The translations under genes were made by a program, and so were the position numbers. DNA of 64,000 nt, taken from the NCBI RefSeq assembly GCF_003334385.1, contig NZ_QOWN01000022.1; one strand, given 5' to 3'. This document shows, in pieces, positions 709 through 43,721 of the stretch; within the stretch, counting starts at the first letter, position 1, and each line of letters opens with the position of its first letter. The notes under the pieces are model-generated. The model was not told the DNA's origin, ran no database searches, and worked only from the letters and a program-made list of their open reading frames with translations. Origin of the DNA: Escherichia coli (GTDB lineage Bacteria > Pseudomonadota > Gammaproteobacteria > Enterobacterales > Enterobacteriaceae).

Positions 709-1515
709 TTAGCGATCTTTACGCCACGCATCCGCCGTCAATGCCTCGCCAAAATGACCGGCAATCAGCCGTTTGGTGAGTTCATGCAGCGGCGATGCCA
801 GCACATCCGCGGTGCTGCCTCGCTCGACAACCTCGCCCTGATGCATCACCAGCACCTGGTCGCTAATGTGCTTCATCATTCCGATATGCTGGGTAACATA
901 AATATACGAAATGCCCTGTTTTTCCTGTAATTCCAGCATCAGATTAATCAACTGCGAACGCATCGACATATCCAGTGAAGCGAGGGCTTCATCGGCAATA
1001 ATGACTTTTGGGCGCAATATCAGCGCGCGCGCCAGACCCAGACGCTGTTTTTGTCCGGGTGCCAACATATGCGGATAGTAACTGACGTGATCCGGTAGCA
1101 GCCCAACCATACGCATCGTTTCAATAATCTGTTTGCGACGCTGTTCCGGTTCCAGGTCGGTGTTCAGGCGCAGTGGAAAATCCAGAATTTGCGAGATACG
1201 TTGACGGGGATTCAACGAGGTCGAAGGATCCTGAAAAATCATGCGAATACGCTGACTGCGGAAGGAATAATCGCCAAAATGCAGTGGATGATCGTCAATC
1301 AATAACTCGCCGCTGGTAGGCTCTATCATTCCCGCCAGCATTTTTGCCAGCGTGGATTTACCCGAACCATTCTCGCCAATAATCGCCAGTGTCTGGCCTT
1401 CACGTAGCGTAAAGCTCAAGGGTTTTACCGCTTCTACGGTCTGACGACGAAACCAGCCGGTCCGGTAGCGGAACGTTTTACTTAAATTACGCACTTCAAG
1501 CAGCGTTTCGATCAT
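709..1515 (-). CDS. sapF: ABC transporter ATP-binding protein SapF, 268 aa
   Basis: Walker A GENGSGKST, signature-like LAPGQKQRLGLARA, Walker B VIIADEALASLD. There is a 1-nt gap to sapD. Confidence 0.95.
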   Translation of the reverse strand: MIETLLEVRNLSKTFRYRTGWFRRQTVEAVKPLSFTLREGQTLAIIGENGSGKSTLAKMLAGMIEPTSGELLIDDHPLHFGDYSFRSQRIRMIFQDPSTSLNPRQRISQILDFPLRLNTDLEPEQRRKQIIETMRMVGLLPDHVSYYPHMLAPGQKQRLGLARALILRPKVIIADEALASLDMSMRSQLINLMLELQEKQGISYIYVTQHIGMMKHISDQVLVMHQGEVVERGSTADVLASPLHELTKRLIAGHFGEALTADAWRKDR

Positions 1516-1516
1516 C

Positions 1517-2509
1517 TCACTCTTTCTCCATGTTCAGCGGGAAATGACAGGCATAGAGATGATTTTTCGCCCCCGTCAAACGTGGCGTCACAATGCATTC
1601 TCGTTGTGCATACGGGCAACGTGGCCCCAGACGACAACCAATCGGTAACTGTTCCAGCAGTGGGATAGCGCCGGGCAGCGTATTGAGGCGACTTTTATGC
1701 GGCATCGCGCTGCCGAAGTCTGGTATCGCGCGGATCAGCGCCTGGGTATAAGGATGATGTGGCATCGTCACCAACTCCTTACTCGGCGCGGTTTCCACTG
1801 TTTGACCGCAGTAAAGCACGTTAATTTTATCCGCCCATTGGCTAAGCATTTGTAAGTCATGGCTGATAAGCAAAATAGTGGTATTGCTGTTTTGGTTGAG
1901 ACGCGTCAGCAGGCGAAAGATTTGCGCCTGGGTTGTTGGCTCCATTGAGTTGGTCGGTTCGTCAGCAATCAGCAGACGCGGTTGATTCGCCAGTGCAATG
2001 GCTATCATCACTTTCTGACATTCACCTTCGGTCAACTCATAGGGAAAACTGCGCATCGCATCTTTGTGATCTTTAATCCCCACGCGGTGCAGCAGTTCAA
2101 TGGCACGGCGTTTGCGCCAGCCAAAACGCTGCCACCAACGGCCTTTATAGGTCCAGGCTGGGATGTTTTGCATCAACTGGCGGCCCACACGTTCTGAAGG
2201 GTCAAGACACGACTGCGGTTCCTGGAAAATCATCGACACGTTATGGCCAACCAGTTTGCGCCGTTCGCGTGCGGAGAGACGCAGCAAATCGATATCATCA
2301 AAACGCATACGGTCAGCAGTAACACGCCAGTTATCTTTATTCACCCCACAAATCGCTTTCGCAATCAAACTCTTGCCGGAACCGGATTCACCAACAAGAC
2401 CGCGGATTTCACCTTCGGTTAAGGTCATACTTACCCGGTCGACGGCTTTAACCCACTCATCACCGGTTTTAAATTCAATGGTCAGGTTACGAATATCGAG
2501 TAATGGCAT
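1517..2509 (-). CDS. sapD: ABC transporter ATP-binding protein SapD, 330 aa
   Basis: Walker [10 protein letters not shown], Walker [13 protein letters not shown], and an Opp/Dpp-type C-terminal extension. Its first nt is shared with the last nt of sapC. Confidence 0.95.
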
Positions 2510-3399
2510 TATTCCACCCCCGCAATAATCGCACGACGAACGCCATCGCCAAGGAGGTTAACCAACAACACGCTAATCATAATTGCCGCACCTGGCAGCA
2601 TGACAGTCCACGGGGCGACATAAATCAGTTCCAGCGCATCACCGAGCATCGCTCCCCATTCAGGCGAGGGGAGTTGTGCGCCGAGATCGAGAAAGCCCAG
2701 CGCGGCGATATCGAGAATTGCCATCGACAGTGCGCGGGTGATCTCGGTGACCAGCCCGGCGGTGATGTTTGGCATCACAGCAAACCAGAGAATATTCAGC
2801 GTTGATGCGCCATCCAGACGGGCGGCGATAACGTACTCTTTTTCCAGTTCGTCATGCACCATGCTGTAAATCGAACGTACCATACGCGGCAGCAATGCCA
2901 GCCAGACAGCAAACATAGCGTGGGACAAACTCGGTCCGGCAAACGCTACAACGATAATTGCCAACAGCAGCGAAGGGATCGCCAGTAAGGTATCCAGAAT
3001 ATGGTTAAGCACCGCTGAGCGGAGGCCGTGTGTCGCCCCGGCGAAGGTGCCCAGTACCAGGCCACAGATCGTCGCGGCAAGCGTCACCACAAATGCGCCA
3101 CCCACGGTTGGCGCAGCTCCGCTCAGTAAACGGCTTAAAACATCGCGTCCGAGGTCGTCAGTCCCCAGGAAGAAAGAAACTTCGCCATAGCGCGACCATG
3201 ACGGCGGCAATAATTGATAACCGAGAAATTGCTGGTCGATGCCGTAAGGCGCAAACCAGCCGCCAAAAATACACAGTACAGCCAGCCCCGCGCAGCCGTA
3301 CAGGCCGACCATCGCAGAGGCGTCACTATAAAATTTGCGCCAGGCGGTACGCAGCGTGCCCGGCGGGCGCTTTTCGCTGTATACGCTATCGTAAGGCAT
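2509..3399 (-). CDS. sapC: ABC transporter permease SapC, 296 aa
   Basis: Polytopic hydrophobic ORF of the Dpp/Opp permease type. It overlaps sapB by 14 nt. Confidence 0.95.
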
Positions 3400-4351
3400 A
3401 CCATTCCTTATGTTTCAGAGGGTTAGCCATGGCACCCAAAATATCAGAAATCACGTTAACAATAATGACCAGTGAGCCACACACCATCACTCCGGCGGAA
3501 ATGGCTGCGTAATCCTGCTGGCGGATGGCGTTAATTAACCAGCGCCCTAAACCCGGCCAGCTAAAAACCATTTCGGTGATCATCGCCAGCGTCAGCATGG
3601 TGGAAAACTGTAAGCCCAGGCGAGGAATAACCGGCGGTAACGCGTTATGCAGAACGTGGCGACGCAAAATAGTAAAGCGCGACAAACCGCGGGTCGCCGC
3701 CGCTTTTACATAGTTCTGGTCATACACTTCGATAGTGCTGATACGCATCAGGCGGATCACTTCAGTTGTTGGCGCAACCGACAGGGTGATCACGGGCAAT
3801 ATCATATGGCGGATTGCGCTCATGATCATTTCATCCCGCCATGGTGAGTCCGAAAGCCAGGCATCAATCAACGCAAAACCGGTAATCGGTTTCACTTCGT
3901 AGAGCAGATCGAAACGCCCTGAAACGGGCAACCAACCTAGCGTGAGTGAACAAAACAGCGTCAACAGAAGCGCCAGCCAGAACACCGGGATTGAAAAGCC
4001 CAGTAAGGCGATGGCGTTGATCAAGTTATCCTGCCACTTATGGCTCGTAATCCCGGCAATCATCCCCACGGGGATGCCAACAATCAGCGCAAAACCGAAG
4101 GCGAGGATGCACAGTTCCATCGTCGCCGGGAAGACCTCTTTTAACTGTTCGGCAATCGGTTGACCGTTAATGCTGGAAACACCAAAATCCCAGTGGATCA
4201 GGCCGTTAAACCAGAACACCCAGGCATTCCACAGTGACGCGCCTTGTAACGGCGCATGAGGGGTGAAATAGCTCAAGCTGAAGCCAACGAAGGTCAGCAG
4301 GAACAAGGTGACAATCAATAACAAAATGCGGCGTAAGGTGAAGATAATCAT
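3386..4351 (-). CDS. sapB: ABC transporter permease SapB, 321 aa
   Basis: Polytopic hydrophobic ORF. It overlaps the sapA stop by 4 nt. Confidence 0.95.
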
Positions 4352-5991
4352 GGTTTTTTCAGCTCATCCTGTTTCTCGCGATACACCCCAGCAAAGGAGG
4401 CGTTACCAAACGGGCTAAGTACCAGACCTTTGATATCGTACCGATAGGCCTGCAAACGCAATGACGACGCCAGCGGCAAAATGGGCAATTCCTGCGCCAG
4501 AATACTCTGCGCTTCGTCATAGGCTTCAATACGCGCCGCCAGCTGCTGCGAAGAGAGCGCCTTACGCAATACGCTGTCGAATTTCGGATCGCACCAGTGG
4601 GCGAGGTTGGTCTGCGAATGAATTGCCGCGCAGCTCAGTAACGGACGGAAGAAACTGTCCGGGTCGTTACTGTCCGTCGCCCAACCGGATAACGTCAGAT
4701 CATGGCTCATATCCATCAACCGCGCCTCCTGAAAGCGACCTTCTACCGGCACAATCACCACTTTTACGCCAACCTGCGCCATATCCGCCTGAATCAGTTC
4801 GGCAGTTTTCAGTGGACTGGGGTTCCACGCCTGCGAACGTGTGGGCACCCACAGTTTCAGCGTTAAATTTTCCAGCCCCAACGACTTCAACTGTTCGCGC
4901 GATTTCGCCGGATTGTATTCAGTAATTTTAGCCTCGTTGTCATAGGCCCACGAGGCGCGCGGTAAAATAGAGGCCGCCGTTTCAGCCGTACCATAATAGA
5001 TGGATTGCATCAGGCGCTGGTTATTAATCGCCAGTGCCAGCGCATGGCGGACAGCGGGATTATTTAGCGGCGGTTTGGCGGTGTTAAATGCCAGATAGGC
5101 GACGTTCATCCCAGGACGCAGCGTTAAACGCAAGCGCGGGTCGTCACGCAAAATGGATAGCTGGCTGGCAGCAGGCCAGGCCAGAACGTCGCATTCCCCG
5201 GTCAGGAGTTTCGACAGACGTCCGGTGCCGCCGGAGCCTAAATCCACCACTACCTGCGGCATTAACGGTTTACCGCGCCAGAAGTCATCATGACGTTGTA
5301 GGCGAATAAATTGCCCGGCGCGGTATTCCGACAACTGATACGGACCGGTGCCGACCGGTTGACGGTCGAGTTGCTCCTGGCGATCTTCTTTCTCTAACTT
5401 CCGGGCATATTCTGCCGACATGACCGAAGCATAATGGGTTGCGAGGTGCCACAAAAAAGAAGCATCCGGCTGGGCGAGTCGGAACTCAACGGTATGATTA
5501 TCCAGTTTGCGGACGCTTTTCACGTTATCGGCAAATTGCAGGCTGTCGAAGTAGGGGAAGTTGCTGCCGTTGACGTTATGCCACGGGTTGTTGCGGTCAA
5601 AAATTCGCTGGAAGGTAAACACCACATCGTCGGCATTCATTTTACGAGTGGGAGTAAACCAGTCGGTTTTTTGAAACGGAACATCGCGACGCAGGTGGAA
5701 GCGATAGGTCGCGCCGTTGTCGAGTACTTCCCAGCTTTCGGCAAGTTCCGGCATCAGGCGATAGGTATAGGGATCGACATCCAGCAGTCGATCATAAAAC
5801 TGGGCGGCAAGGGTATCGACAATTAACCCACTGCTCGCTTTGGATGGGTTAAAGGTGTTGACTTGCCCGCTGACGCAATAGACAAAACCGCTGTCGCGGA
5901 TATCAGCATGCGGGGGAGATTCAGGCGCGGCGATTGCCTGACCACTCACAAGTCCAGCAATCACCAAAAGAGACGATAATACCTGGCGCAT
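4348..5991 (-). CDS. sapA: Periplasmic family-5 solute-binding protein SapA, 547 aa
   Basis: N-terminal signal peptide [21 protein letters not shown]. It has the length and sequence of an Opp/Dpp-type binding protein and is the first gene of the sapABCDF operon. Confidence 0.95.
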
Positions 5992-6239
5992 AATATTAAG
6001 GGATTTTATGTAAAGAGGCTATCTTACTAATATTTAATGACATTTGCCATTACCGTTTGTGTTCAGGGGTCGTAATGAGGGCCGTGTGGTTGGTCGTTGA
6101 ACAGGTGACGTCGCCATCTGTTCAACATTCGTACCCGTGATTTCTCTATAACTATAACTCACAGAACAACTTAGCGAGGAGCAGAGCGGTACGATCGTGA
6201 GAAACCCATTAAAGCACGCTGCAGTGCGTGTCATTGTTA

Positions 6240-6270
6240 GCCAGATGCGGCGTGAACGCTTTATCCGGAC
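6240..6270. repeat. REP (repetitive extragenic palindrome) unit, degenerate
   Basis: gccagatgcggcgtgaacgctttatccggac matches the GCCGGATGCGGCGTGAACGCCTTATCCGGC-type REP consensus with a few mismatches. Confidence 0.65.
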
Positions 6271-6303
6271 AACGATACTGACCGATCGTCTGCAATTAAA
6301 TCA

Positions 6304-6549
6304 TTACTCATTACCCCATTGATTCAAAAACTCTGCGATCTCATCAATGCGTACGGGATTAATCCCCGCTTCAGCAGCCATTTCATGTTGGGCTTCTTCG
6401 CTGATCTCTTCATTGTTCATCAAACGGGTGAGCAGTAACTGGAAGTAGTGGGCCAGCGGTGTGCGTTCAGCCTCTGCGACAGGCTCTGCGCATTCGGTCG
6501 CGTACTCATCGGCAATATCAAAATATTTTAGCGGGATATCGTGGTTCAT
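6304..6549 (-). CDS. ymjA: Small conserved protein YmjA (DUF2543), 81 aa
   Basis: Intact 81-aa acidic [22 protein letters not shown]..., recognised as K-12 YmjA. Confidence 0.85.
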
Positions 6550-6682
6550 TATTTGCCCCTGGGGTTAATGCGCTAAGCATAAGGGCGGATGATAGCACTC
6601 GTGATCCGGGTCATACATCTTTTTATAGTTAATGGCGCGGCGCGTTACCCTCAGGCAGGATAATGCGCCGCGCATCCGACTA

Positions 6683-8068
6683 TTACGTTTCACTCACCGG
6701 CGTTCTGTCACCATCATACAACGGCACTTTGCGATAGCGGCGGATCAGATACCATAAATATGCGCCGCCTAACGAAGCCCATACCAGACCGAGTGTCAGT
6801 GACGTTGACTCGAGGTTAACCCACAGCACACCCACCGTCAGCGCGCCAACCAGCGGCATCAGCAAATAGTGGAAGTGATCCTTCCAGCTTTTATTCATTC
6901 CTTTACGCCGCCAGAAATGATTAAACACCGACAGATTCACGAAGGTAAACGCCACCAGAGCACCGAAGTTAATTAACGCTGTGGCGGTAACTAAATCGAA
7001 GAACAGCGCCGACAACGCGACAATCCCGACCATAATGACGTTGAGTGCCGGAGTCCGCCATTTTGGGTGCACATAGCCAAACACGCGCTCCGGAAACACA
7101 TTGTCACGCCCCATCACATACAGCAGACGCGACACGCTGGCATGTGAAGCCAGGCCAGAGGCTAACGTGTTCACAAACGTGGTGCAGAGGAAAATCGACT
7201 GGAAGAGCTTGCCGCCGACGTACAGCGCAATTTCAGGCAGTGCGGCATCCGGATCTTTAAAGCGGCTGATATCGGGAAAGAACAGCTGCATAAAGAACGA
7301 CGCCGCGATAAAGATAACGCCACCGTAGACCGCCGTCAGGAAGATGGCTTTCGGGATCACGCGTGCGGCGTCCGGCGTCTCTTCCGAAAGCGTGGTCACC
7401 GCATCGAAACCGAGGAAGGAGAAACAGACAATCGTCGCCCCGGTAATAATCGGGATCAGGTGCGCGTTCTCGCTGATAAACGGCTGAAGTGACCAGACGG
7501 TGCCAACGCCTTCTCCTTTATGCAGTCCCTGAACTACCAGGAAGATAAACACCACCATGATGGAGATTTGCACCAGTACAAACAGGGTATTGAAGTTAGC
7601 GACCAGGTTGACGCTCTTCAGATTCGCGGCGGTTAAAATGGCGACGAAGGTTACCACCCACACCCACGGCGGCACTTCCGGGAAGAGGGCGGAGAGATAG
7701 ATTTTCGCCAACAAGACGTTAATCATCGGCAAAAAGAGATAATCCAGCAGCGATGACCAGCCGACCATAAATCCGACGTGCGGGTTAATCGACTTTTGCG
7801 CGTAGGTATAGGCCGAACCGGCCTCCGGAAACTGGCGAACCAGTTTGCCGTAGCTGATAGCGGTAAACAGCACACCCGCCAGCGCCAGCAAATAGGACGC
7901 CGGAACGTGACCGTCGCTAATGCCGGAGACAATACCAAAAGTATCAAATACGGTCATCGGCGTGAGATAGGCCAGACCCATCATCACCACCTGCCACAAT
8001 TTCAGTGATTTTCGCAGACGGGTTTTGCCGGGTTGCGCAGCAATATTCAGTGGTGAATTAATAGCCAT
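6683..8068 (-). CDS. puuP: Putrescine importer PuuP (APC family), 461 aa
   Basis: 12-TM amino acid/polyamine permease ORF. The start was set at the ATG (RC cat 8066-8068) giving [15 protein letters not shown]. The track ORF extends 18 codons further upstream. Confidence 0.93.
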
Positions 8069-8356
8069 AATTGCTGCCTCCCCTGCGTAATAAGGTTTGC
8101 GGTCGTGTCGACCTGAAATCAAACCTGTTTAGCAAGGGAAGCAAAGGGGGCGGAGTCCAGTCAGTAGCAGGAGGGGCGCATACGCAGCCTCCCTCGCCAT
8201 GCGGGGATTTAATCATCGGCATCATCTCATTTCCTCGTCACAGTCTTAATCGTTAACGGAAGCCCGTTGCCGCCCGCGCTCCATAACGCGACATCCGGGA
8301 AATGTCTGGATTACCAGCAAATGTCAGGCCTGGCTCCGCTCAGGCCGATGAAACAA

Positions 8357-8368
8357 CCCCGCAAGGGG
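8357..8368 (-). terminator. Short GC stem-loop just after the puuA stop (possible attenuator between puuA and puuP)
   Basis: ccccgcaagggg (4-bp stem, 4-nt loop) lies 3 nt downstream of the puuA stop. On the minus strand it is followed by ttgttt. It is weak and would have to allow readthrough to puuP. Confidence 0.35.
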
Positions 8369-8370
8369 TA

Positions 8371-9789
8371 TTACGCGTTTTTCAACATCCACTCAATTTC
8401 TGTTTCTGTGATGAGGCGCTCAAACTGCAACAGCTCATCATTTTTACAGGCGTGATAGACATGGCAGAAGCGTTCGCCTAAATAGCGGCGCAGGTGATCA
8501 TTCTCGATAAACTCACCCAGGGCATCGCTCTGGCGAATCGGAAAGGGTAAGCCTTCCTGTTCCAGCCCGTTGCCTTCGACTTCTTCCTGCAACGGCAGCT
8601 CGTTATCAAGGCCATGCAAAATACCGGCAAAAATCGCTGCCATCACCAGATATGGGTTGGCATCGGCACCCGCCACGCGATATTCCACGCGGTGATTATG
8701 ACGGTCGCCGCACGGAATACGCAGGGCGACGGTGCGGTTGTTATGGCCCCACGACGCCTGCGTCGGCACATACATTCCCGGCTGGAAGCGGCGATACGAG
8801 TTCACGTTTGGTGCCAGCAACGCCATCGACGACGGCATCAGGTCAATCATCCCGGCGAGCATCTTTTTCAGCAGCGGCGAATCTTCGCCTTCCGCGTCAG
8901 AAAGCACGTTCTCGCCACGATTATTTTGCATACTGATATGGATATGCATTCCGCTGCCCGCGTGCTCTTCATACGGCTTCGCCATAAAAGTGGCGTGCAT
9001 CTTATGCTTTTCTGCCATCAGACGCACCAGGCGTTTTAGTGCCAGCGCATCATCGCAGGCTTCCAGCACGTTATCAGTATGGTAAAGGTTGATTTCAAAC
9101 TGACCCGGCGAGGCCTCAGCGACCGCGCCATCTGCCGGAATCAGCTGTAACTGCGCCAGTTCATCAATATCATTGAGCACGTCGGCGAAGTGGTTGAGGT
9201 TATCAACGGAGTAAACCTGGCTTTGTGTATTGCGGTCATCGGTGCCAGGCGCGCAGGGCGGTTGCAGATACCCTTCAGCGTCGCGCTGGCGATCCAGTAA
9301 ATAGAACTCCAGCTCTACCGCTACGACCGGGAACAATCCGCGCTGGCGCAGCTGCTGCCACAGGCGGTTAAGAACGTTCCGCGGCTCAACGTCAAAGGGA
9401 GCGCCATCTTCATCGACCATGGTCAGGAGCATCTGACCGATAAACTCTGGATCGGCGGCAGAAGGAGTTAAGGAACCGAGAACAGGAACACAGGTACGAT
9501 CCGGCTCGCCCATTTCCTGACCCAGACCTGCTTCTTCTACTACGTTGCCCAGAATATCCATTGCAAATACCGAGGCCGGGAAATAACACCCTTTCTCGAG
9601 CTTCTTCAGGCTTGAAACAGGAATACGCTTTCCACGGAAGCAACCATTTAAATCGGTAAGTAAAACATCAACATATTGCGTATTCGGGTAGCGCTCCAGG
9701 TAGCGTTTCACTTCCTGCGTAAAGGCGCTACCCCGCCTCTCTTCTGACTGCTGAACAAAGTTCTCTACTTCAACGATATTGGTTTCCAT
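8371..9789 (-). CDS. puuA: Glutamate-putrescine ligase PuuA (glutamine synthetase family), 472 aa
   Basis: GS-family ORF. The start is at the ATG 9787-9789 giving METNIVEVENFVQQSEE. The track ORF has 26 extra upstream codons. Confidence 0.95.
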   Translation of the reverse strand: METNIVEVENFVQQSEERRGSAFTQEVKRYLERYPNTQYVDVLLTDLNGCFRGKRIPVSSLKKLEKGCYFPASVFAMDILGNVVEEAGLGQEMGEPDRTCVPVLGSLTPSAADPEFIGQMLLTMVDEDGAPFDVEPRNVLNRLWQQLRQRGLFPVVAVELEFYLLDRQRDAEGYLQPPCAPGTDDRNTQSQVYSVDNLNHFADVLNDIDELAQLQLIPADGAVAEASPGQFEINLYHTDNVLEACDDALALKRLVRLMAEKHKMHATFMAKPYEEHAGSGMHIHISMQNNRGENVLSDAEGEDSPLLKKMLAGMIDLMPSSMALLAPNVNSYRRFQPGMYVPTQASWGHNNRTVALRIPCGDRHNHRVEYRVAGADANPYLVMAAIFAGILHGLDNELPLQEEVEGNGLEQEGLPFPIRQSDALGEFIENDHLRRYLGERFCHVYHACKNDELLQFERLITETEIEWMLKNA

Positions 9790-9832
9790 GATTCTTCGCC
9801 TTTGGTTTGTTTTCCGCTCGTTATCAAAGCGT

Positions 9833-9847
9833 AAAATATAATGACCA
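9833..9847 (+). promoter_or_regulatory. Candidate PuuR operator copy 1 (aaaatataatgacca)
   Basis: A 13-nt core aaaatataatgaC/A is repeated at 10005-10019. It lies in the puuA-puuD divergent control region. From memory, the published PuuR consensus is AAAATATAATGAACA. Confidence 0.55.
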
Positions 9848-9929
9848 CCATTCGAATCTGTATGCAAACTAAATGTTTGTCAAATGTTAAATTGAGTTTG
9901 CAAAAATGAAAACCCACTGCTAGATTGAA

Positions 9930-9942
9930 AAAATATTGAACA
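9930..9942 (+). promoter_or_regulatory. Candidate PuuR operator-like variant (aaaatattgaaca)
   Basis: Same motif lacking 2 nt, in the same intergenic region. Confidence 0.3.
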
Positions 9943-10000
9943 TAAAGGTCATTTAAAGCGCAGTAATGGCGATAATTTAGTCCACTTTGTGAGATTGAGC

Positions 10001-10765
10001 ATGGAAAATATAATGAACAATCCGGTTATCGGTGTCGTAATGTGCAGGAACAGGCTTAAGGGTCATGCGACCCAGACTCTGCAAGAAAAGTACCTGAATG
10101 CCATCATCCATGCAGGCGGCTTGCCTATTGCGCTACCACATGCGCTGGCGGAACCGTCATTACTTGAACAACTTTTGCCGAAACTCGATGGCATTTATCT
10201 TCCTGGTAGTCCCAGCAATGTGCAGTCGCACCTATATGGTGAAAACGGCGATGAGCCTGACGCCGATCCCGGGCGTGATCTTCTGAGCATGGCGATAATT
10301 AATGCCGCACTCGAAAGGCGCATCCCCATTTTCGCCATCTGCCGGGGTTTACAAGAACTGGTGGTGGCAACCGGTGGTTCGTTGCATCGCAAGCTGTGCG
10401 AACAGCCTGAATTGCTGGAACATCGGGAAGATCCCGAACTGCCGGTGGAACAGCAATATGCACCGTCGCATGAAGTTCAGGTTGAAGAGGGGGGATTACT
10501 GTCTGCGTTGTTACCTGAATGTAGCAACTTTTGGGTAAACTCTCTACATGGACAAGGGGCGAAGGTCGTTAGCCCACGGTTGCGTGTTGAAGCTCGCTCG
10601 CCGGATGGCTTAGTTGAGGCGGTTAGCGTCATCAATCATCCTTTTGCGCTGGGCGTACAGTGGCACCCGGAATGGAACAGTAGCGAGTACGCGCTTTCGC
10701 GTATATTGTTCGAGGGCTTTATCACCGCTTGTCAGCACCATATCGCTGAAAAACAGCGACTCTGA
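10001..10765 (+). CDS. puuD: Gamma-glutamyl-GABA hydrolase PuuD (class I glutamine amidotransferase-like), 254 aa
   Basis: Nucleophile elbow FAICRGLQ and a C-terminal HPE triad motif (QWHPEW). The start is at ATG 10001 (MENIMNNPVIG). Confidence 0.95.
   Translation: MENIMNNPVIGVVMCRNRLKGHATQTLQEKYLNAIIHAGGLPIALPHALAEPSLLEQLLPKLDGIYLPGSPSNVQSHLYGENGDEPDADPGRDLLSMAIINAALERRIPIFAICRGLQELVVATGGSLHRKLCEQPELLEHREDPELPVEQQYAPSHEVQVEEGGLLSALLPECSNFWVNSLHGQGAKVVSPRLRVEARSPDGLVEAVSVINHPFALGVQWHPEWNSSEYALSRILFEGFITACQHHIAEKQRL
10005..10019 (+). promoter_or_regulatory. Candidate PuuR operator copy 2 (aaaatataatgaaca), inside the first codons of puuD
   Basis: It matches the remembered PuuR consensus exactly and overlaps puuD codons 2-7 (ENIMNN). 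Confidence 0.55.
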
Positions 10766-10791
10766 CCACTACAGTTTAAGGAAATGCAAAT

Positions 10792-11349
10792 ATGAGTGAT
10801 GAGGGACTGGCGCCAGGAAAACGCTTGTCGGAAATCCGCCAGCAGCAGGGGCTTTCACAACGTCGTGCCGCCGAACTCTCCGGGCTGACTCACAGTGCTA
10901 TCAGTACGATAGAACAAGATAAAGTCAGCCCTGCCATCAGTACGCTGCAAAAGCTGCTGAAGGTGTATGGTCTGTCACTCTCGGAATTCTTTTCCGAGCC
11001 GGAAAAACCTGATGAGCCGCAGGTCGTCATTAATCAGGACGACTTAATTGAGATGGGTAGTCAGGGTGTGTCAATGAAGCTGGTTCATAACGGTAACCCG
11101 AATCGCACGCTGGCGATGATCTTTGAAACGTACCAGCCGGGCACAACCACTGGGGAAAGAATTAAGCATCAGGGTGAGGAAATAGGCACTGTACTGGAAG
11201 GTGAAATTGTTCTGACGATTAATGGTCAGGATTACCACCTCGTCGCGGGGCAAAGTTATGCCATTAATACCGGCATCCCGCACAGTTTCAGTAATACGTC
11301 GGCAGGTATTTGCCGAATTATCAGCGCCCATACGCCCACCACGTTTTAA
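10792..11349 (+). CDS. puuR: Repressor PuuR (N-terminal XRE HTH plus C-terminal cupin), 185 aa
   Basis: HTH region LSQRRAAELSGLTHSAISTIEQDK and a cupin-like C-terminal half. Confidence 0.95.
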   Translation: MSDEGLAPGKRLSEIRQQQGLSQRRAAELSGLTHSAISTIEQDKVSPAISTLQKLLKVYGLSLSEFFSEPEKPDEPQVVINQDDLIEMGSQGVSMKLVHNGNPNRTLAMIFETYQPGTTTGERIKHQGEEIGTVLEGEIVLTINGQDYHLVAGQSYAINTGIPHSFSNTSAGICRIISAHTPTTF

Positions 11350-11365
11350 TCTTTTTGTTCTGTAA

Positions 11366-11390
11366 GCCGGGTAAGCGCAATGCGCCCGGC
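11366..11390. repeat. REP-like GC hairpin after puuR
   Basis: gccgggtaagcgcaatgcgcccggc has a 6-bp stem gccggg/cccggc. No T tract follows. Confidence 0.5.
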
Positions 11391-11410
11391 AATCTATACA
11401 CAAAATCATT

Positions 11411-11525
11411 CAAGTTGCATCAAGGCGGCAAGTGAGCGAATCCCGATGAGCTTACTCAGGTAAGTGATTCGGGGGAGCGAACGCAGCCAAGGCAGAGGCG
11501 GCTTGAAGGATGAAGTGTATATAAA
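11411..11525. repeat. ERIC / IRU (enterobacterial repetitive intergenic consensus) element
   Basis: aagtgagcgaatcccgatgagcttactcaggtaagtgattcgggggagcgaacgcagccaaggc... matches the remembered ERIC core (GTGAATCCCCAGGAGCTTACATAAGTAAGTGACTGGGGTGAGCG). It is an imperfect palindrome centred on gagcttac/gtaagtga. Confidence 0.7.
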
Positions 11526-11623
11526 GAATGTCGCCAGAAATAAACGGGCATACGGCCCGGGGATCTCTGCGCCCTGACGTTCACAAACTGCATATATCTG
11601 ATAGACGTGAAACAGGAGTCATA

Positions 11624-13110
11624 ATGAATTTTCATCATCTGGCTTACTGGCAGGATAAAGCGTTAAGTCTCGCCATTGAAAACCGCTTATTTATTAACGG
11701 TGAATATACTGCTGCGGCGGAAAATGAAACCTTTGAAACCGTTGATCCGGTCACCCAGGCACCGCTGGCGAAAATTGCCCGCGGCAAGAGCGTCGATATC
11801 GACCGTGCGATGAGCGCAGCACGCGGCGTATTTGAACGCGGCGACTGGTCACTCTCTTCTCCGGCTAAACGTAAAGCGGTACTGAATAAACTCGCCGATT
11901 TAATGGAAGCCCACGCCGAAGAGCTGGCACTGCTGGAAACTCTCGACACCGGCAAACCGATTCGTCACAGTCTGCGTGATGATATTCCCGGCGCGGCGCG
12001 CGCCATTCGCTGGTACGCCGAAGCGATCGACAAAGTGTATGGCGAAGTGGCGACCACCAGTAGCCATGAGCTGGCGATGATCGTGCGTGAACCGGTCGGC
12101 GTGATTGCCGCCATCGTGCCGTGGAACTTCCCGCTGTTGCTGACTTGCTGGAAACTCGGCCGGCGCTGGCGGCGGGAAACAGCGTGATTCTAAAACCGTC
12201 TGAAAAATCACCGCTCAGTGCGATTCGTCTCGCGGGGCTGGCGAAAGAAGCAGGCTTGCCGGATGGTGTGTTGAACGTGGTGACGGGTTTTGGTCATGAA
12301 GCCGGGCAGGCGCTGTCGCGTCATAACGATATCGACGCCATTGCCTTTACCGGTTCAACCCGTACCGGGAAACAGCTGCTGAAAGATGCGGGCGACAGCA
12401 ACATGAAACGCGTCTGGCTGGAAGCGGGCGGCAAAAGCGCCAACATCGTTTTCGCTGACTGCCCGGATTTGCAACAGGCGGCAAGCGCCACCGCAGCAGG
12501 CATTTTCTACAACCAGGGACAGGTGTGCATCGCCGGAACGCGCCTGTTGCTGGAAGAGAGCATCGCCGATGAATTCTTAGCCCTGTTAAAACAGCAGGCG
12601 CAAAACTGGCAGCCGGGCCATCCACTTGATCCCGCAACCACCATGGGCACCTTAATCGACTGCGCCCACGCCGACTCGGTCCATAGCTTTATTCGGGAAG
12701 GCGAAAGCAAAGGGCAACTGTTGTTGGATGGCCGTAACGCCGGGCTGGCTGCCGCCATCGGCCCGACCATCTTTGTGGATGTGGACCCGAATGCGTCCTT
12801 AAGTCGCGAAGAGATTTTCGGTCCGGTGCTGGTGGTCACGCGTTTCACATCAGAAGAACAGGCGCTACAGCTTGCCAACGACAGCCAGTACGGCCTTGGC
12901 GCGGCGGTATGGACGCGCGACCTCTCCCGCGCGCACCGCATGAGCCGACGCCTGAAAGCCGGTTCCGTCTTCGTCAATAACTACAACGACGGCGATATGA
13001 CCGTGCCGTTTGGCGGCTATAAGCAGAGCGGCAACGGTCGCGACAAATCCCTGCATGCCCTTGAAAAATTCACTGAACTGAAAACCATCTGGATAAGCCT
13101 GGAGGCCTGA
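11624..13110 (+). pseudogene. puuC: puuC (aldH), gamma-glutamyl-gamma-aminobutyraldehyde dehydrogenase, interrupted by a 1-nt frameshift near 12160
   Basis: ATG 11624 to stop 13110 is 1487 nt (3n-1). The first frame ends ...PWNFPLLLTCWKLG-RRWRRETA* at 12187. The overlapping ORF 12121-13110 continues PALAAGNSVILKPSEKSPL to the normal C-terminus. The local sequence is ctcGGCCGGcgc, and GGCCCGG would restore a 495-aa ALDH. Confidence 0.85.
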
Positions 13111-38750: not shown

Positions 38751-38776
<26 letters not shown>

Positions 38777-39479
38777 GATGCCAGCGCAGCAAGTTTGCCA
38801 TCGCAAAGAGATATTTTTCGCTGGCTTCGTCGGAGGAGATGGGCGGAAACTCTGCGGTGATGCAATGCAAGTTCAGATCTGCACACCAACTGCCGAAAGA
38901 GCCAGGCGTTTCATAACCGACGCTGGTTACCAGAGGCAATTCAAACGCCTGAGCCAGCCATTCGCCTAATTCGCTGTGTCTGGGATCTTCAATACAGGCC
39001 AGTGGATCGTGGAATGAGACCACCCAGGCAGGTTGAATGCGGTGTATAAGCTGGCACAGCGCCTGGGTTTCAGGTTCGGAGCCAGGTTTGTCACCTGTCA
39101 GTAATACGACATCGCGTTCTTCAGCGGCGCTGTTCCAGCGATAAACGGTTTCACCTTCCTTCCAGTTCGCCGCCGGAAAGTTTCTGTTTAAATCCACACC
39201 ATTAGCATTGGCCCGTAACCCCAACTGGCAGCCGTCAGGATTCACACACAGCACCACATGATGACGGCGCAAAGAAGGTGTCAACGTCCGCAGAGCACAG
39301 GAGAGCGTGACGACCGAAGAGTTTTCATCACCGTGAGTGCCAGCCAGAATCAAACCACTTTCGCGGCTGGCTGCAGGGGCAGGAAACCAGATTAACGGCG
39401 CGCCCAATAATGAACGTCCGTAATGTTCTGTTCCGGGCGGAAATGCGCCGCGTTCGGCGCGTGGGCGGGTTACGGTCAT
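38751..39479 (-). CDS. mpaA: Murein tripeptide amidase MpaA (M14 zinc carboxypeptidase family), 242 aa
   Basis: Zn-binding HxxE motif in AGTHGDENSS. The start is at ATG 39477-39479 (MTVTRPRAERG). Its 3' end overlaps the ycjG 3' end by 26 nt. Confidence 0.93.
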
Positions 39480-39560
39480 GATCGTCTCTGGTTCAGGAAG
39501 TATTACAGGCAGTGTTGTGCAAATTTTGCGGATTATCAAATCCTTTTCTTCAACGCTATG

Positions 39561-39743
39561 TCATCGATCTTGTATCACTTTTTTGCCGGAAGTTGTTTGC
39601 ATTTTATTAGTTGGATAGGGTTTGTGGATTTTTGCTGGCTGACGGGCAAATAAAGTTTGTTTAATGGTTTGCTTATCTGCCAGTTGATTAATCACATGGC
39701 GGGCTATCTGACCGCCAGCACCAAGAATCAGTACATTTTTCAT
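39561..39743 (-). pseudogene. ymjC: ymjC': N-terminal relic of an NAD(P)-binding Rossmann (NmrA/SDR-like) protein, 60 codons
   Basis: MKNVLILGAGGQIARHVINQL carries a GxGxxG/A dinucleotide fold. After about 35 residues the ORF runs into unrelated sequence (the 30-bp repeat) and stops. This is far too short for a Rossmann protein. Confidence 0.7.
39575..39604 (+). repeat. 30-bp repeat copy A (tcacttttttgCCggaagttgtttgcattt)
   Basis: 28/30 identical to 42021-42050, in the same orientation. It lies 96 nt upstream of the mpaA start and inside the ymjC' tail. Confidence 0.85.
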
Positions 39744-39813
39744 GAAAATTATCCCAGATTATTGGCAGCAATATGCCAGTCCATATCACTATTGCGGATT
39801 TGAATATGTTTCA

Positions 39814-40734
39814 TTACAGAGTTTCCTCAAAGAACGGAGCTAATACTGAAATTGCTTCAGCCACATAGGCTTTGCCGTCATAAAGATCCATATGGTTTGC
39901 GCCTTCAACAATGTGATAGCGTTTATCCTGGCTTGATGCTCGATCGTACAGGTCGTCACTCATCCATTTGCTCCCTGCCTGGCTGCCCGCCACAATCTGC
40001 GTCGGCTGAGTCAGGTACACTTCCGCCATATGGTAAGCATCATAGGTAATAATCTGGTTAAGGCTGCGCAAAGTAGCGTAACCCGGTGCTGTTGGATACT
40101 GCGCGCGAGGGGGGTGGTAATACTCCCAGGCCTGACGCAGTTCTTCGTTCGGCGCATCGGACTCCTTCATTGGTGCCAGTGGCATAATGGCGTATTCTCC
40201 GCTGCTAATATCGCTGGTTCTGGCGTTTGAACCCGCTTCAACGTATGGCAGGGCATCAATAGATTTCACATTGTTTTCCCAACCATTACGGAATATCGAA
40301 CCAATATTGACCGCACTAACGGTACCGATGGCCTTGATGCGGCGATCCTGAATTGCAGCATTGGCTGTATATCCTGCACCGGCACAAATTCCCATCGCAC
40401 CAATTCGGGTATTGTCGACATAAGAAAGCGTTGTCAGGTAATCAATCACGGCACTGATGTCTTCAGTACGAATGTATGGGTTTTCTAACTGACGCGGCTC
40501 GCCGCCACTTTCACCTTGATAAGATGCGTCATAAGCAATAGTGACAAATCCCTTTTCCGCCAGTTTTTTGGCATAGGTTCCGGCCGTTTGTTCTTTAACG
40601 CCCCCACCTGGGTGAGATAACACAATTGCCTGATACTGACGGGTTTCATCAAATTTTGGAGGGAAATAGATCACTGCAGACAAAGAGATGGTTGGATTAT
40701 TGCTGTTAGTGAAGCTGACTTTATTATTCATCAT
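39814..40734 (-). CDS. ycjY: Alpha/beta-hydrolase YcjY, 306 aa
   Basis: Nucleophile elbow GICAGAG (GxC/SxG) in an alpha/beta-hydrolase-length ORF. The start is at the first of the tandem ATGs (MMNNKVSF). Confidence 0.88.
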   Translation of the reverse strand: MMNNKVSFTNSNNPTISLSAVIYFPPKFDETRQYQAIVLSHPGGGVKEQTAGTYAKKLAEKGFVTIAYDASYQGESGGEPRQLENPYIRTEDISAVIDYLTTLSYVDNTRIGAMGICAGAGYTANAAIQDRRIKAIGTVSAVNIGSIFRNGWENNVKSIDALPYVEAGSNARTSDISSGEYAIMPLAPMKESDAPNEELRQAWEYYHPPRAQYPTAPGYATLRSLNQIITYDAYHMAEVYLTQPTQIVAGSQAGSKWMSDDLYDRASSQDKRYHIVEGANHMDLYDGKAYVAEAISVLAPFFEETL

Positions 40735-40821
40735 TCCGTTCCTCATGGAGTTGTCGGTTCGTTTTAACGGTTGGTGATATCACTATAGATATTGATCATT
40801 AAGTTGATTAGACCCAAAATC

Positions 40822-40838
40822 ATGATTAGACCTATCAT
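40822..40838. promoter_or_regulatory. Candidate LysR-type (PgrR) operator ATGAT-N7-ATCAT in the ycjY-pgrR divergent region
   Basis: atgattagacctatcat is a palindrome containing a T-N11-A core. The direct repeat tgattagacc occurs at 40805-40814 and 40823-40832. A nearby 10-bp perfect palindrome gtgatatcac lies at 40784-40793. Confidence 0.4.
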
Positions 40839-40871
40839 TTAAATGATTAATAGATTGCATGGAGATACTGA

Positions 40872-41771
40872 ATGAAGCGTGAAGAAATCGCTGATCTGAT
40901 GGCGTTTGTCGTCGTTGCAGAGGAGCGTAGCTTCACTCGTGCAGCAGCCCGCCTGAGCATGGCGCAGTCAGCTTTAAGCCAGATAGTGCGTCGTATAGAA
41001 GAACGATTGGGATTGCGGCTTCTGACGCGAACCACGCGCAGCGTTGTTCCAACTGAAGCGGGCGAGCATCTTTTGTCTGTTCTTGGCCCTATGTTGCATG
41101 ACATAGATTCAGCCATGGCATCCCTGAGCGATCTGCAGAACCGCCCATCCAGGACAATACGTATTACTACTGTAGAACATGCAGCAAAAACGATATTGTT
41201 ACCAGCAATGCGCACATTCCTGAAATCGCATCCTGAAATTGATATTCAGCTCACCATTGATTATGGTTTGACCGATGTCGTTTCTGAACGTTTTGATGCA
41301 GGCGTCCGTCTGGGTGGGGAGATGGATAAAGATATGATCGCCATTCGAATCGGGCCAGATATACCAATGGCTATTGTTGGCTCACCGGATTATTTTTCTC
41401 GCCGAAGTGTTCCAACGTCAGTGTCACAATTAATAGATCATCAGGCAATTAATTTGTATCTTCCCACATCGGGTACAGCAAATCGCTGGAGATTAATACG
41501 CGGTGGACGTGAAGTTCGTGTTCGCATGGAAGGTCAGCTTTTACTGAATACGATAGACCTGATCATTGATGCTGCAATTGATGGGCATGGATTGGCGTAT
41601 CTACCTTATGATCAGGTTGAGCGGGCTATTAAAGAAAAAAAACTGATACGTGTTTTGGATAAATTCACACCAGATTTACCCGGTTATCACCTGTACTATC
41701 CACACCGTCGACATGCTGGCTCGGCATTCTCATTATTTATAGATAGGCTGAAGTATAAAGGTGCTGTTTAG
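40872..41771 (+). CDS. pgrR: LysR-family regulator PgrR (YcjZ), 299 aa
   Basis: N-terminal wHTH FVVVAEERSFTRAAARLSMAQSALSQIVRRIE plus a LysR substrate-binding domain. Confidence 0.93.
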   Translation: MKREEIADLMAFVVVAEERSFTRAAARLSMAQSALSQIVRRIEERLGLRLLTRTTRSVVPTEAGEHLLSVLGPMLHDIDSAMASLSDLQNRPSRTIRITTVEHAAKTILLPAMRTFLKSHPEIDIQLTIDYGLTDVVSERFDAGVRLGGEMDKDMIAIRIGPDIPMAIVGSPDYFSRRSVPTSVSQLIDHQAINLYLPTSGTANRWRLIRGGREVRVRMEGQLLLNTIDLIIDAAIDGHGLAYLPYDQVERAIKEKKLIRVLDKFTPDLPGYHLYYPHRRHAGSAFSLFIDRLKYKGAV

Positions 41772-42020
41772 CACTACTTGCTGATACATTAATTTAATTC
41801 TTCTCTTAACGTATTCTCAGTTCCTTTCAACGTTTTGGTCATTTTTTATTCTTCGTACAATGGCGACAGATGCTGATTATGATACCGAAAACGGGTTTGA
41901 ACGTGCGAAGCCCGAACGTAGTGTTCGGAGTTCTATGTGCTTTACCGCATTTTGGAGACTATTATTTACACTAAATCTGATTTGATATATTGATACTTAA
42001 AACATTTGATGCTTCCTTTG

Positions 42021-42050
42021 TCACTTTTTTGATGGAAGTTGTTTGCATTT
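42021..42050 (+). repeat. 30-bp repeat copy B (tcacttttttgATggaagttgtttgcattt)
   Basis: 28/30 identical to 39575-39604. It lies 58 nt upstream of the mppA ATG. Confidence 0.85.
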
Positions 42051-42107
42051 CTTTAAGGCGAAACAAATAATTACGCATCAATTTTAATGTCGGTTAGAGG
42101 GAAACTT

Positions 42108-43721
42108 ATGAAGCACTCTGTTTCAGTCACGTGTTGTGCGCTGTTGGTCAGCAGCATTTCTCTTTCGTATGCTGCAGAAGTTCCGAGCGGCACAGTACTG
42201 GCAGAGAAGCAGGAGCTGGTGCGCCACATTAAAGATGAGCCTGCGTCGCTGGATCCCGCTAAAGCCGTGGGCCTGCCAGAGATTCAGGTCATTCGCGATC
42301 TGTTTGAAGGTCTGGTGAATCAGAACGAAAAAGGGGAGATTGTCCCCGGCGTTGCGACTCAGTGGAAAAGTAATGACAACCGTATCTGGACTTTTACCCT
42401 GCGCGATAACGCAAAATGGGCGGATGGCACACCGGTAACGGCGCAAGATTTTGTCTACAGCTGGCAACGTCTGGTGGACCCAAAAACATTGTCGCCATTT
42501 GCATGGTTTGCCGCGCTGGCGGGAATCAACAACGCACAGGCGATTATTGATGGTAAAGCTACGCCTGACCAGCTTGGCGTCACCGCAGTTGATGCCCATA
42601 CTTTGAAAATTCAGCTTGATAAACCGTTGCCGTGGTTTGTGAATTTAACCGCTAACTTTGCCTTCTTCCCGGTGCAAAAAGCCAACGTAGAAAGCGGTAA
42701 AGAGTGGACGAAACCCGGAAATCTGATCGGCAATGGCGCTTATGTTCTTAAAGAGCGCGTAGTCAATGAAAAACTGGTCGTGGTACCGAATACCCATTAT
42801 TGGGATAACGCCAAAACGGTACTGCAAAAAGTGACCTTCCTGCCAATTAATCAGGAATCCGCAGCCACTAAGCGTTACCTCGCGGGGGATATTGATATCA
42901 CCGAATCCTTCCCGAAAAATATGTATCAGAAGCTGTTGAAGGATATTCCGGGGCAGGTTTATACGCCGCCGCAGCTCGGGACCTATTATTATGCGTTTAA
43001 CACGCAAAAAGGGCCGACGGCAGATCAGCGCGTTCGTCTGGCATTAAGTATGACGATAGATCGCCGCCTGATGACCGAAAAAGTATTAGGGACGGGCGAA
43101 AAGCCAGCGTGGCATTTTACACCAGATGTTACCGCGGGATTTACGCCGGAACCTTCGCCGTTTGAACAAATGAGTCAGGAAGAACTGAATGCGCAGGCAA
43201 AAACTTTGTTGAGCGCAGCTGGTTATGGTCCGCAAAAACCGCTGAAGCTGACGCTTTTGTATAACACTTCAGAAAACCATCAAAAAATTGCGATTGCTGT
43301 AGCATCGATGTGGAAAAAGAACCTTGGCGTAGATGTTAAATTGCAAAATCAGGAATGGAAAACCTATATCGATAGCCGTAACACCGGCAATTTTGATGTT
43401 ATCCGCGCCTCGTGGGTGGGGGATTATAATGAACCCTCCACTTTCCTGACATTATTAACGTCAACGCATTCAGGAAATATTTCACGCTTTAACAATCCGG
43501 CATATGACAAAGTTCTGGCCCAGGCATCGACGGAAAATACCGTTAAAGCGCGTAATGCCGATTACAACGCGGCAGAAAAAATCCTCATGGAGCAAGCACC
43601 GATTGCACCAATTTATCAATATACCAATGGACGATTAATCAAGCCGTGGCTGAAAGGTTATCCCATTAATAATCCTGAAGATGTGGCGTACAGTCGGACT
43701 ATGTATATTGTGAAGCATTGA
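42108..43721 (+). CDS. mppA: Periplasmic murein tripeptide-binding protein MppA (family-5 SBP, OppA paralogue), 537 aa
   Basis: Signal peptide MKHSVSVTCCALLVSSISLSYA and OppA-like sequence throughout. The start is at ATG 42108. Confidence 0.95.
   Translation: MKHSVSVTCCALLVSSISLSYAAEVPSGTVLAEKQELVRHIKDEPASLDPAKAVGLPEIQVIRDLFEGLVNQNEKGEIVPGVATQWKSNDNRIWTFTLRDNAKWADGTPVTAQDFVYSWQRLVDPKTLSPFAWFAALAGINNAQAIIDGKATPDQLGVTAVDAHTLKIQLDKPLPWFVNLTANFAFFPVQKANVESGKEWTKPGNLIGNGAYVLKERVVNEKLVVVPNTHYWDNAKTVLQKVTFLPINQESAATKRYLAGDIDITESFPKNMYQKLLKDIPGQVYTPPQLGTYYYAFNTQKGPTADQRVRLALSMTIDRRLMTEKVLGTGEKPAWHFTPDVTAGFTPEPSPFEQMSQEELNAQAKTLLSAAGYGPQKPLKLTLLYNTSENHQKIAIAVASMWKKNLGVDVKLQNQEWKTYIDSRNTGNFDVIRASWVGDYNEPSTFLTLLTSTHSGNISRFNNPAYDKVLAQASTENTVKARNADYNAAEKILMEQAPIAPIYQYTNGRLIKPWLKGYPINNPEDVAYSRTMYIVKH

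Follow-up and report, generated by a model that had tools for sequence, protein, structure and literature searches.

The mpaA-mppA region and its repeat pair

We analysed a 64,000-nucleotide stretch of Escherichia coli DNA (the window; assembly GCF_003334385.1, contig NZ_QOWN01000022.1) in which a near-perfect direct repeat lies just upstream of both mpaA and mppA and brackets the genes that separate them. The window is 100% identical to E. coli K-12-type chromosomes. RefSeq annotation of an identical E. coli record gives the gene order ycjG, mpaA, a 46-codon "NAD-dependent dehydratase" pseudogene, ycjY, pgrR, mppA and ynaI, and Pfam concurs, in support of the gene identities assigned in a first-pass annotation of this DNA. 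The murein tripeptide amidase gene mpaA (38751-39479, minus strand; annotation, Pfam and relatives) and the murein tripeptide-binding protein gene mppA (42108-43721, plus strand; annotation and relatives) are ancestral neighbors. Between them lie the pseudogene ymjC' (39606-39743, minus strand), the N-terminal 46 codons of a 212-amino-acid NAD(P)H-binding short-chain dehydrogenase/reductase (SDR) as judged from the RefSeq pseudogene, an intact gene in E. coli locus L001 and the Pfam family NAD_binding_10; the alpha/beta hydrolase gene ycjY (39814-40734, minus strand; annotation, Pfam and homologs), transcribed toward mpaA; and the LysR-type regulator gene pgrR, also called ycjZ (40872-41771, plus strand; annotation, Pfam and contexts). 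We argue here that the repeats are very probably two copies of about 37 bp of the ancestral mpaA-mppA divergent-promoter spacer, duplicated as some 4 kb of foreign DNA entered it in the E. coli lineage.

Copy A of the repeat occupies positions 39575-39604 and copy B positions 42021-42050, both on the plus strand, and 28 of the 30 positions are identical, the sole differences being the central dinucleotide, CC in copy A and AT in copy B. The first-pass annotation had put a match of this quality far below chance expectation, and no match at ≤3 mismatches was recovered in any of 100 dinucleotide-preserving shuffles of the window. A repeat search of the window extended the similarity slightly leftward, to 42 nt with 83% identity (39568-39609 and 42014-42055), and in strains carrying an undeleted block the same type of search gave a pair of 37 nt with 89% identity. 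The right edge is sharp, identity ending past GCATTT. We therefore delimit the two duplicated segments as 39568-39604 and 42014-42050, in each case the 30-mer plus seven weaker bases leftward. Copy A begins 96 nt from the mpaA start codon (39479) and copy B ends 58 nt before the mppA ATG (42108), both distances as first described. Copy A also forms the tail of the truncated gene, as had been noticed: a 60-amino-acid open reading frame (39561-39743) reads from the ymjC' remnant into it.

The first-pass annotation had named a widespread dispersed repeat as one of the findings that together would speak against any tie to these genes. With a 38-nt query and both exact 30-mers, we located the motif in 5,419 of 5,426 complete E. 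coli genomes, at a median of two and a maximum of four places per genome, which rules out a dispersed intergenic repeat of the REP/BIME or ERIC-like kind. A search of positions 39300-42300 against Rfam gave nothing above any family's gathering threshold.

Single-copy spacers and the inserted block

To place the repeats in an evolutionary context, neighboring genes and the motif were mapped in 80 Enterobacteriaceae loci around MpaA homologs, one genome per species. In 71 of the 80, mpaA directly neighbors a divergent mppA across a spacer of about 175 bp; these loci come from Citrobacter, Enterobacter, Leclercia, Lelliottia, Kluyvera, Trabulsiella, Yokenella and Pluralibacter among others, and include E. 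ruysiae, E. whittamii and other Escherichia lineages. One motif copy was found wherever the motif was recognised at ≤7 mismatches (most of the 71 adjacent loci), and in a footprint alignment the element was present in 71/71 single-copy spacers. The ymjC-ycjY-pgrR block with a copy at each edge was found in this sample in E. coli and in Escherichia sp. E1V33, and within the locus fetched from Shigella flexneri (L006) only the copy A edge of the block was found. Base by base, the single-copy spacer lines up with three K-12 pieces joined in order: the flank on the mpaA side, the motif, and the flank on the mppA side. Therefore the block was inserted there, and about 37 nt of the target now stand at both of its ends. 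As in a target duplication, a single colinear copy is present in insert-free relatives and the sequence between the two copies is foreign. In the S. flexneri locus (5740-9900) the block is rearranged, with ycjY about 1.8 kb from a second hydrolase gene and mppA not within 10 kb, a rearrangement likely due to insertion sequence (IS) activity.

Not all E. coli carry the insertion. A probe of 501 nt for the empty site matched end to end in 174 of 5,419 complete genomes, and the block is thus absent from about 3% of E. coli genomes and from all sampled sister genera. The first-pass annotation had proposed asking whether mpaA and mppA adjoin around a single motif in genomes lacking the block, and this is the arrangement both in the 71 loci of relatives and in these 174 genomes. 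Three empty-site E. coli strains were inspected, and in each of them mpaA and mppA are adjacent with one motif copy between them. One allele combines a CC center with an E. ruysiae-like right flank, a second a CC center with an E. coli right flank, and the third (L086) an AT center, as in copy B, with a copy A left flank, a chimera such as recombination in which both copies take part should yield. Conversely, Escherichia sp. E1V33 (L008) carries the K-12-type block with a copy B and right flank of E. ruysiae type. Homologous recombination seems to have brought the block into this lineage, in an exchange that stopped where homology ends, at the repeat; the shared deletion junction together with the E. 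ruysiae-like mppA-side flank suggests that the K-12-type allele has been transferred between lineages.

Sequence comparison points to a foreign source for the block. The YcjY protein is 80-87% identical to homologs in Pluralibacter, Rhizobium, Agrobacterium, Sphingobium and Burkholderia, an identity unusually high across classes that points to a recent and wide horizontal spread of a LysR-hydrolase module. Wherever else the YcjY homolog was inspected, a LysR gene stands divergent to it and a second alpha/beta hydrolase gene comes next. The operon continues in Klebsiella-, Citrobacter koseri- and Serratia-type loci with an SDR gene whose product shares 79-83% identity with that of intact E. coli ymjC, and these modules often add a second SDR and an old-yellow-enzyme gene. 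The fullest E. coli block (L002) is 77-79% identical in DNA to these loci, and the homology begins exactly at the stop codon of pgrR and ends about 75 nt beyond that of the SDR gene; the outer ends of the block (106 nt at its left and, at its right, the AT-rich stretch 41772-42013 of about 242 nt) have no match in the module loci. GC content is 33-50% across the block versus 53-57% in the mpaA and ycjG flanks. On these grounds we read the block as a truncated copy of a widely transferred module in which a LysR gene, here pgrR, travels divergently with a hydrolase-hydrolase-SDR operon headed by ycjY.

Two side observations concern the module and its ends. In Klebsiella/Salmonella-type module loci (L098-L100, about 10000-12000) the neighbors are variable defence-like genes, either an AGS_C cyclase with PycTM or SMODS with SLATT, and the module there sits beside a defence-island hotspot. 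In the right end of the block, RefSeq annotates a 31-codon fragment of QueH (epoxyqueuosine reductase) in some strains (L002, L097), at window positions 41869-41961, which could hint at the donor; Pfam did not confirm it, and a donor arrangement with pgrR adjoining queH was not found among the module contexts sampled.

The block exists in three forms in E. coli. The fullest (L002), of about 3.97 kb, holds the SDR gene, a second alpha/beta hydrolase gene, ycjY, pgrR and AT-rich ends. The second hydrolase, a 310-amino-acid paralog of YcjY (L002 2228-3119), is present in many E. coli genomes. It is deleted in K-12 and in the intermediate form (L001), which lacks about 0.9 kb of it; about its first 19 codons are left, and in the window it would lie between 39743 and 39814. 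The K-12 form, of 2,409 nt in the window (39605-42013), has in addition lost 665 bp, a stretch reaching from within ymjC, of which the 3' two-thirds are gone, through the adjoining spacer to copy A. Comparison of K-12 with L001 shows this deletion to be clean, with ≤1 nt of microhomology (window junction 39605-39606; L001 1406-2071), and Escherichia sp. E1V33 shares this junction.

Many E. coli strains have the intact 212-amino-acid SDR with copy A at the same place. Because all three block forms have an identical copy A at an unchanged position, the ymjC truncation was a later and separate event, which merely abuts copy A. One of the two readings in the first-pass annotation had the repeats as scar or substrate of a rearrangement that both inserted the block and truncated ymjC. 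Its first half stands, as the block is an intrusion between mpaA and mppA and the repeats are the duplicated edges of the target; the tie to the ymjC truncation does not, since copy A co-occurs with intact ymjC. The deletion has also produced a new junction sequence: a minus-strand promoter-like element aimed at mpaA, TCCACA-16-TAAAAT (39601-39628), spans it, with the -10 overlapping the end of copy A. Such an element is impossible in strains with intact ymjC.

The duplicated segment in the ancestral spacer

The footprint of the 71 single-copy spacers has four conserved blocks. Two lie on the mpaA side (TACTnGCAGTGTTGTGCAAAA and TAATCAAATnGTTT), one is the motif itself (ATCAnnTTT…AAG…TTTGCATTTC) and the fourth, GAAACAAATAATTAC, lies on the mppA side and holds a predicted -10 element. 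In the mpaA-proximal part of the ancestral spacer (39480-39567, minus strand; delimited by the footprint and by alignment), boxes kept across genera are GCAGTGTTGTGCAAA (39509-39523) and one beginning TATCAAAT (about 39534-39548). The GCAGTGTTGTGCAAA box, about 30-45 nt upstream of mpaA, is nearly invariant over the 71 Enterobacteriaceae spacers and more conserved than a plain promoter element requires; we know of no factor for it. Within the motif, comparison of 61 distinct sequences found TCA, the A-G of AAG, TTGC and one T invariant at fixed spacing, with TCA, AAG and TTTGCATTTC as wholes invariant or nearly so and the middle of the motif variable.

A scan for sigma-70 promoters returned TTTGCA-18-AATAAT in Leclercia, Escherichia sp. 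MOD1 and the window (42042-42071, plus strand, where the motif is copy B). Its -35 falls within the motif and its -10 in the GAAACAAATAATTAC box; both predicted hexamer regions are conserved across the spacers. From consensus and conservation we infer that the 3' part of the motif is the -35 of a putative mppA promoter and its 5' part an upstream element. Other assignments did not hold. A sigma-54 promoter (GG-N10-GC, TGGCAC-N5-TTGC) was rejected on reading the sequence, since CGGAAGTTGTTTGCA has GG-N9-GC and is one base short, as is GGCAGTGTTGTGCA near mpaA. A hairpin or intrinsic terminator was likewise rejected: RNAalifold predicted no pairs, the covariation score was reached by 34 of 500 shuffles and so did not go beyond controls, the Rfam search had returned nothing above threshold, and a terminator-like hairpin was found only in Leclercia. 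A resemblance between the 3' half of the motif and a conserved mpaA-side box (11 of 16 positions) was dropped as about what chance would give, by rough estimate, in a 180-nt spacer.

The two copies differ in how well they are kept in E. coli. Exact copy B was found in 4,933 of 5,419 genomes and a one-mismatch variant of it in 15, and exact copy A in 3,714 with a one-difference variant in 1,466, where all of these are counts of genomes and not of independent mutations. Variants of copy A include a C>T change within TTTGCA and a 1-nt insertion in the T run. This contrast fits a constrained copy B, as part of a working promoter, and a relaxed copy A, which would then be vestigial.

Origin of the duplication and comparison with known systems

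Taken together, these findings suggest the following course of events. A segment with pgrR divergent from ycjY, the second hydrolase gene and ymjC, and with AT-rich ends, would have entered the permissive gap between two promoters. Each copy of the target has remained with its own half of the old spacer, copy A joined to the mpaA-proximal half and copy B to the mppA-proximal half. Together with the conserved -10 box to its right, copy B would still supply the mppA promoter with its -35 and upstream part and would be held constant, and copy A would be a leftover on the mpaA side that is slowly decaying. The imported operon is aimed at mpaA, so that chance of position would have put mpaA at the end of a transcript under PgrR control. 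Two later deletions in K-12 took away about 0.9 kb with the second hydrolase and 665 bp with the 3' end of ymjC, the latter ending beside copy A. As to the mode of duplication, our best guess is a one-off illegitimate insertion, with fill-in of a staggered break or a template switch, and not the action of a dedicated mobile element. The single and double states of the motif, their colinearity, the foreign origin of the block and its presence/absence polymorphism are direct observations.

Several points weigh against parts of this account. About 37 bp far exceeds the target duplications made by transposases, and E. coli is without classical end joining. The predicted mppA promoter is an assignment from consensus and conservation, and it was not flagged in Citrobacter murliniae, where the hexamer is ATTGCA. 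A few large clades could yield the contrast in variant counts between the copies, and about 460 genomes without exact AT-type copy B imply at least two common copy B alleles. Finally, a flank single-nucleotide polymorphism (39562) has the ancestral T in 3/3 sampled empty-site strains versus C in 6/6 sampled block-bearing loci; the empty sites may stem from excision, descent or allelic replacement.

The alternative that survives best, to which we give a small chance of being right, is that the repeats are cores of the attL/attR type: a circular element with a matching sequence would have integrated by a single crossover, either site-specific or RecA-dependent over short homology, and would later have lost its recombinase. 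A direct repeat of about 37 bp is typical of attachment-site (att) cores and too long for a transposase target duplication, the arms beside the repeats are AT-rich, and single-copy alleles exist with either a CC or an AT center, among them the L086 chimera of copy A left flank and copy B center. The same spacer has, moreover, been hit independently in Salmonella and Scandinavium. However, no integrase, transposase or relic of either was found in any block form by annotation, and Pfam shows only SDR, hydrolases and LysR. The motif was absent from the 13 other module loci searched, and flanking repeats were absent from the three module sites tested (L087, L088, L091). An element carrying the motif did not emerge from phages or plasmids either. 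The 17-nt core GGAAGTTNTTTGCATTT (16 specified bases) had 39 matches in 2.9 million viral contigs, and in these the upstream 20 nt agree with the motif at 5.7 of 20 positions, the chance level, so that no phage contig has the extended motif. A plasmid collection gave five matches, all of them E. coli records with two places each; three are of 4.8-4.9 Mb and look like mislabelled chromosomes, and the nature of the other two, of 253 kb and 386 kb, was left unexamined. We hence rejected a phage- or plasmid-borne attP.

The other insertions in the spacer do not share the breakpoints of the E. coli block, and their inserts are unrelated. Salmonella enterica subsp. arizonae and diarizonae have the cytolethal distending toxin genes cdtA-cdtB-cdtC between mppA and mpaA (L024 6857-10000; L027 6571-10000). 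The mppA-side motif is replaced there, and of the motif at the mpaA side S. diarizonae retains only the initial 19 nt or so; a test for flanking repeats at these Salmonella sites found none. In Scandinavium species and Citrobacter sp. OP27 (L071, L079, L082, about 880-10000), a single open reading frame of 2,866 amino acids (GH94, cyclic beta-1,2-glucan synthase-like) is inserted to the left of the motif; the flanking-repeat test here spanned the mppA-proximal 500 nt of L071 and not the whole insert. In E. coli MFDS1019527 (L095 1-5950), the end of a lambdoid prophage (J, cor, tail fibre) is joined inside the 5' end of mppA, which is thereby given a new N-terminus and parted from mpaA. Prophage integration at the motif is rejected for this strain, as the junction lies within mppA and the motif is absent from the locus.

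A transposon or IS target-site duplication was rejected in view of the missing transposase, the length of about 37 bp against the usual 2-14 bp, and the lack of clean terminal inverted repeats, the sole inverted pair near the block ends being weak (24 nt, 71% complementarity). A one-off illegitimate insertion is favored because there are no mobility genes, because the module has neither flanking repeats nor the motif at its other sites as sampled, and because the other insertions in the spacer have different breakpoints.

It is unlikely, in our view, that both copies were kept as the shared operator of one factor, PgrR or another, which coordinates mpaA with mppA, the duplication having been fixed by letting both separated genes retain the site. 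In favor of this, the ancestral divergent spacer does contain the segment as a conserved cis element, about 97% of E. coli genomes have both copies, and the fixed spacing of TCA-N12-AAG-N3/4-TTTGCA resembles a protein-recognised element and not a structure. For PgrR, which had been the second reading of the first-pass annotation, the difficulty is that the regulator arrived with the block, yet the motif is conserved in at least 70 genomes without a PgrR ortholog. In published genomic SELEX (systematic evolution of ligands by exponential enrichment), the ycjY/ycjZ spacer is the only PgrR target listed at the locus, with no separate peak upstream of mpaA or mppA (PMC5934670); these target data are taken from secondary tables. 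Copy A is drifting, with common variants of which one falls in the most conserved box, the 30-mer contains no inverted repeat, and its conserved 3' part is more simply explained as a -35 element. What remains of the earlier proposal is that the motif is a conserved cis element, most likely of the mppA promoter, so that "regulatory" is a fair word for copy B; a PgrR operator is not supported.

Published data also bear on the regulation of the locus. The unit ycjY-ymjDC-mpaA is listed as regulated (repressed) by PgrR, with mpaA as its last gene (PMC5934670), and because the imported operon points at mpaA, the insertion is the best explanation for this control. Both the pgrR promoter and that of ycjY have been called RpoE-dependent (PMC5493296), and a chromatin immunoprecipitation sequencing (ChIP-seq) peak of CRP was reported in the ycjZ/mppA spacer of enterotoxigenic E. 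coli H10407 (PMC4287617).

A related view, which we hold to be quite improbable, makes the segment of about 37 bp the central operator of the ancestral bidirectional mpaA/mppA region, a candidate site for a factor other than PgrR that is conserved across Enterobacteriaceae and would still bind both copies. If this were so, the duplication would have let a 4-kb foreign operon be tolerated, with uptake (mppA) staying coordinated with breakdown (mpaA). Practically no credence is due to three further readings, in which the repeat came about as a side effect of the ymjC-truncating rearrangement, belongs to a dispersed family or matches by chance, even though the K-12 deletion junction adjoins copy A: strains with intact ymjC have an identical copy A in the same place, and neither the two places per genome, nor the shuffles, nor the Rfam search leave room for the others.

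Insertion of about 4 kb of foreign DNA with duplication of its target explains the odd K-12 gene order: a horizontally acquired hydrolase/oxidoreductase module landed in the promoter region common to two murein-peptide genes. It suggests that PgrR, the "regulator of peptidoglycan recycling", came to control mpaA, as reported, by an accident of position specific to E. coli and not through an ancestral circuit. The mpaA-mppA spacer has taken insertions at least three times independently, and strains with the empty site or with variant copies A offer a natural experiment for dissecting the mppA and mpaA promoters. Our literature search found no paper describing the insertion or the repeat.

Compared with known systems, the locus resembles the target duplications of horizontally acquired islets, with a single copy where the insert is missing and one on each side of it where it is present, foreign composition, homologs elsewhere and polymorphism within the species. 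It differs from transposase-made target duplications in its length of about 37 bp, in having no terminal inverted repeats, transposase or integrase, and in that the module occurs elsewhere without such repeats at the tested sites. With the attL/attR pairs of integrase islands and prophages it shares the length and direct orientation of the repeat and a conserved intergenic target, but there is no recombinase gene or relic, no attP-bearing element was found, and the target is a promoter region and not a tRNA gene or gene end. The ancestral spacer of 175 bp, with its fixed conserved boxes and a motif overlapping the predicted mppA -35, is reminiscent of bidirectional promoters with shared central control; unlike in these, the central piece is duplicated, the promoters now stand 2.4-4 kb apart, and no regulator is known to bind the motif. 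Regulatory capture by read-through offers a further parallel: the imported operon is directed toward mpaA, which is reported to be the final gene in the PgrR-repressed unit ycjY-ymjDC-mpaA (PMC5934670). As a difference, mpaA also retains its own ancestral upstream region. The feature is thus an ordinary insertion scar of gene transfer, and what is unusual about it is its length.

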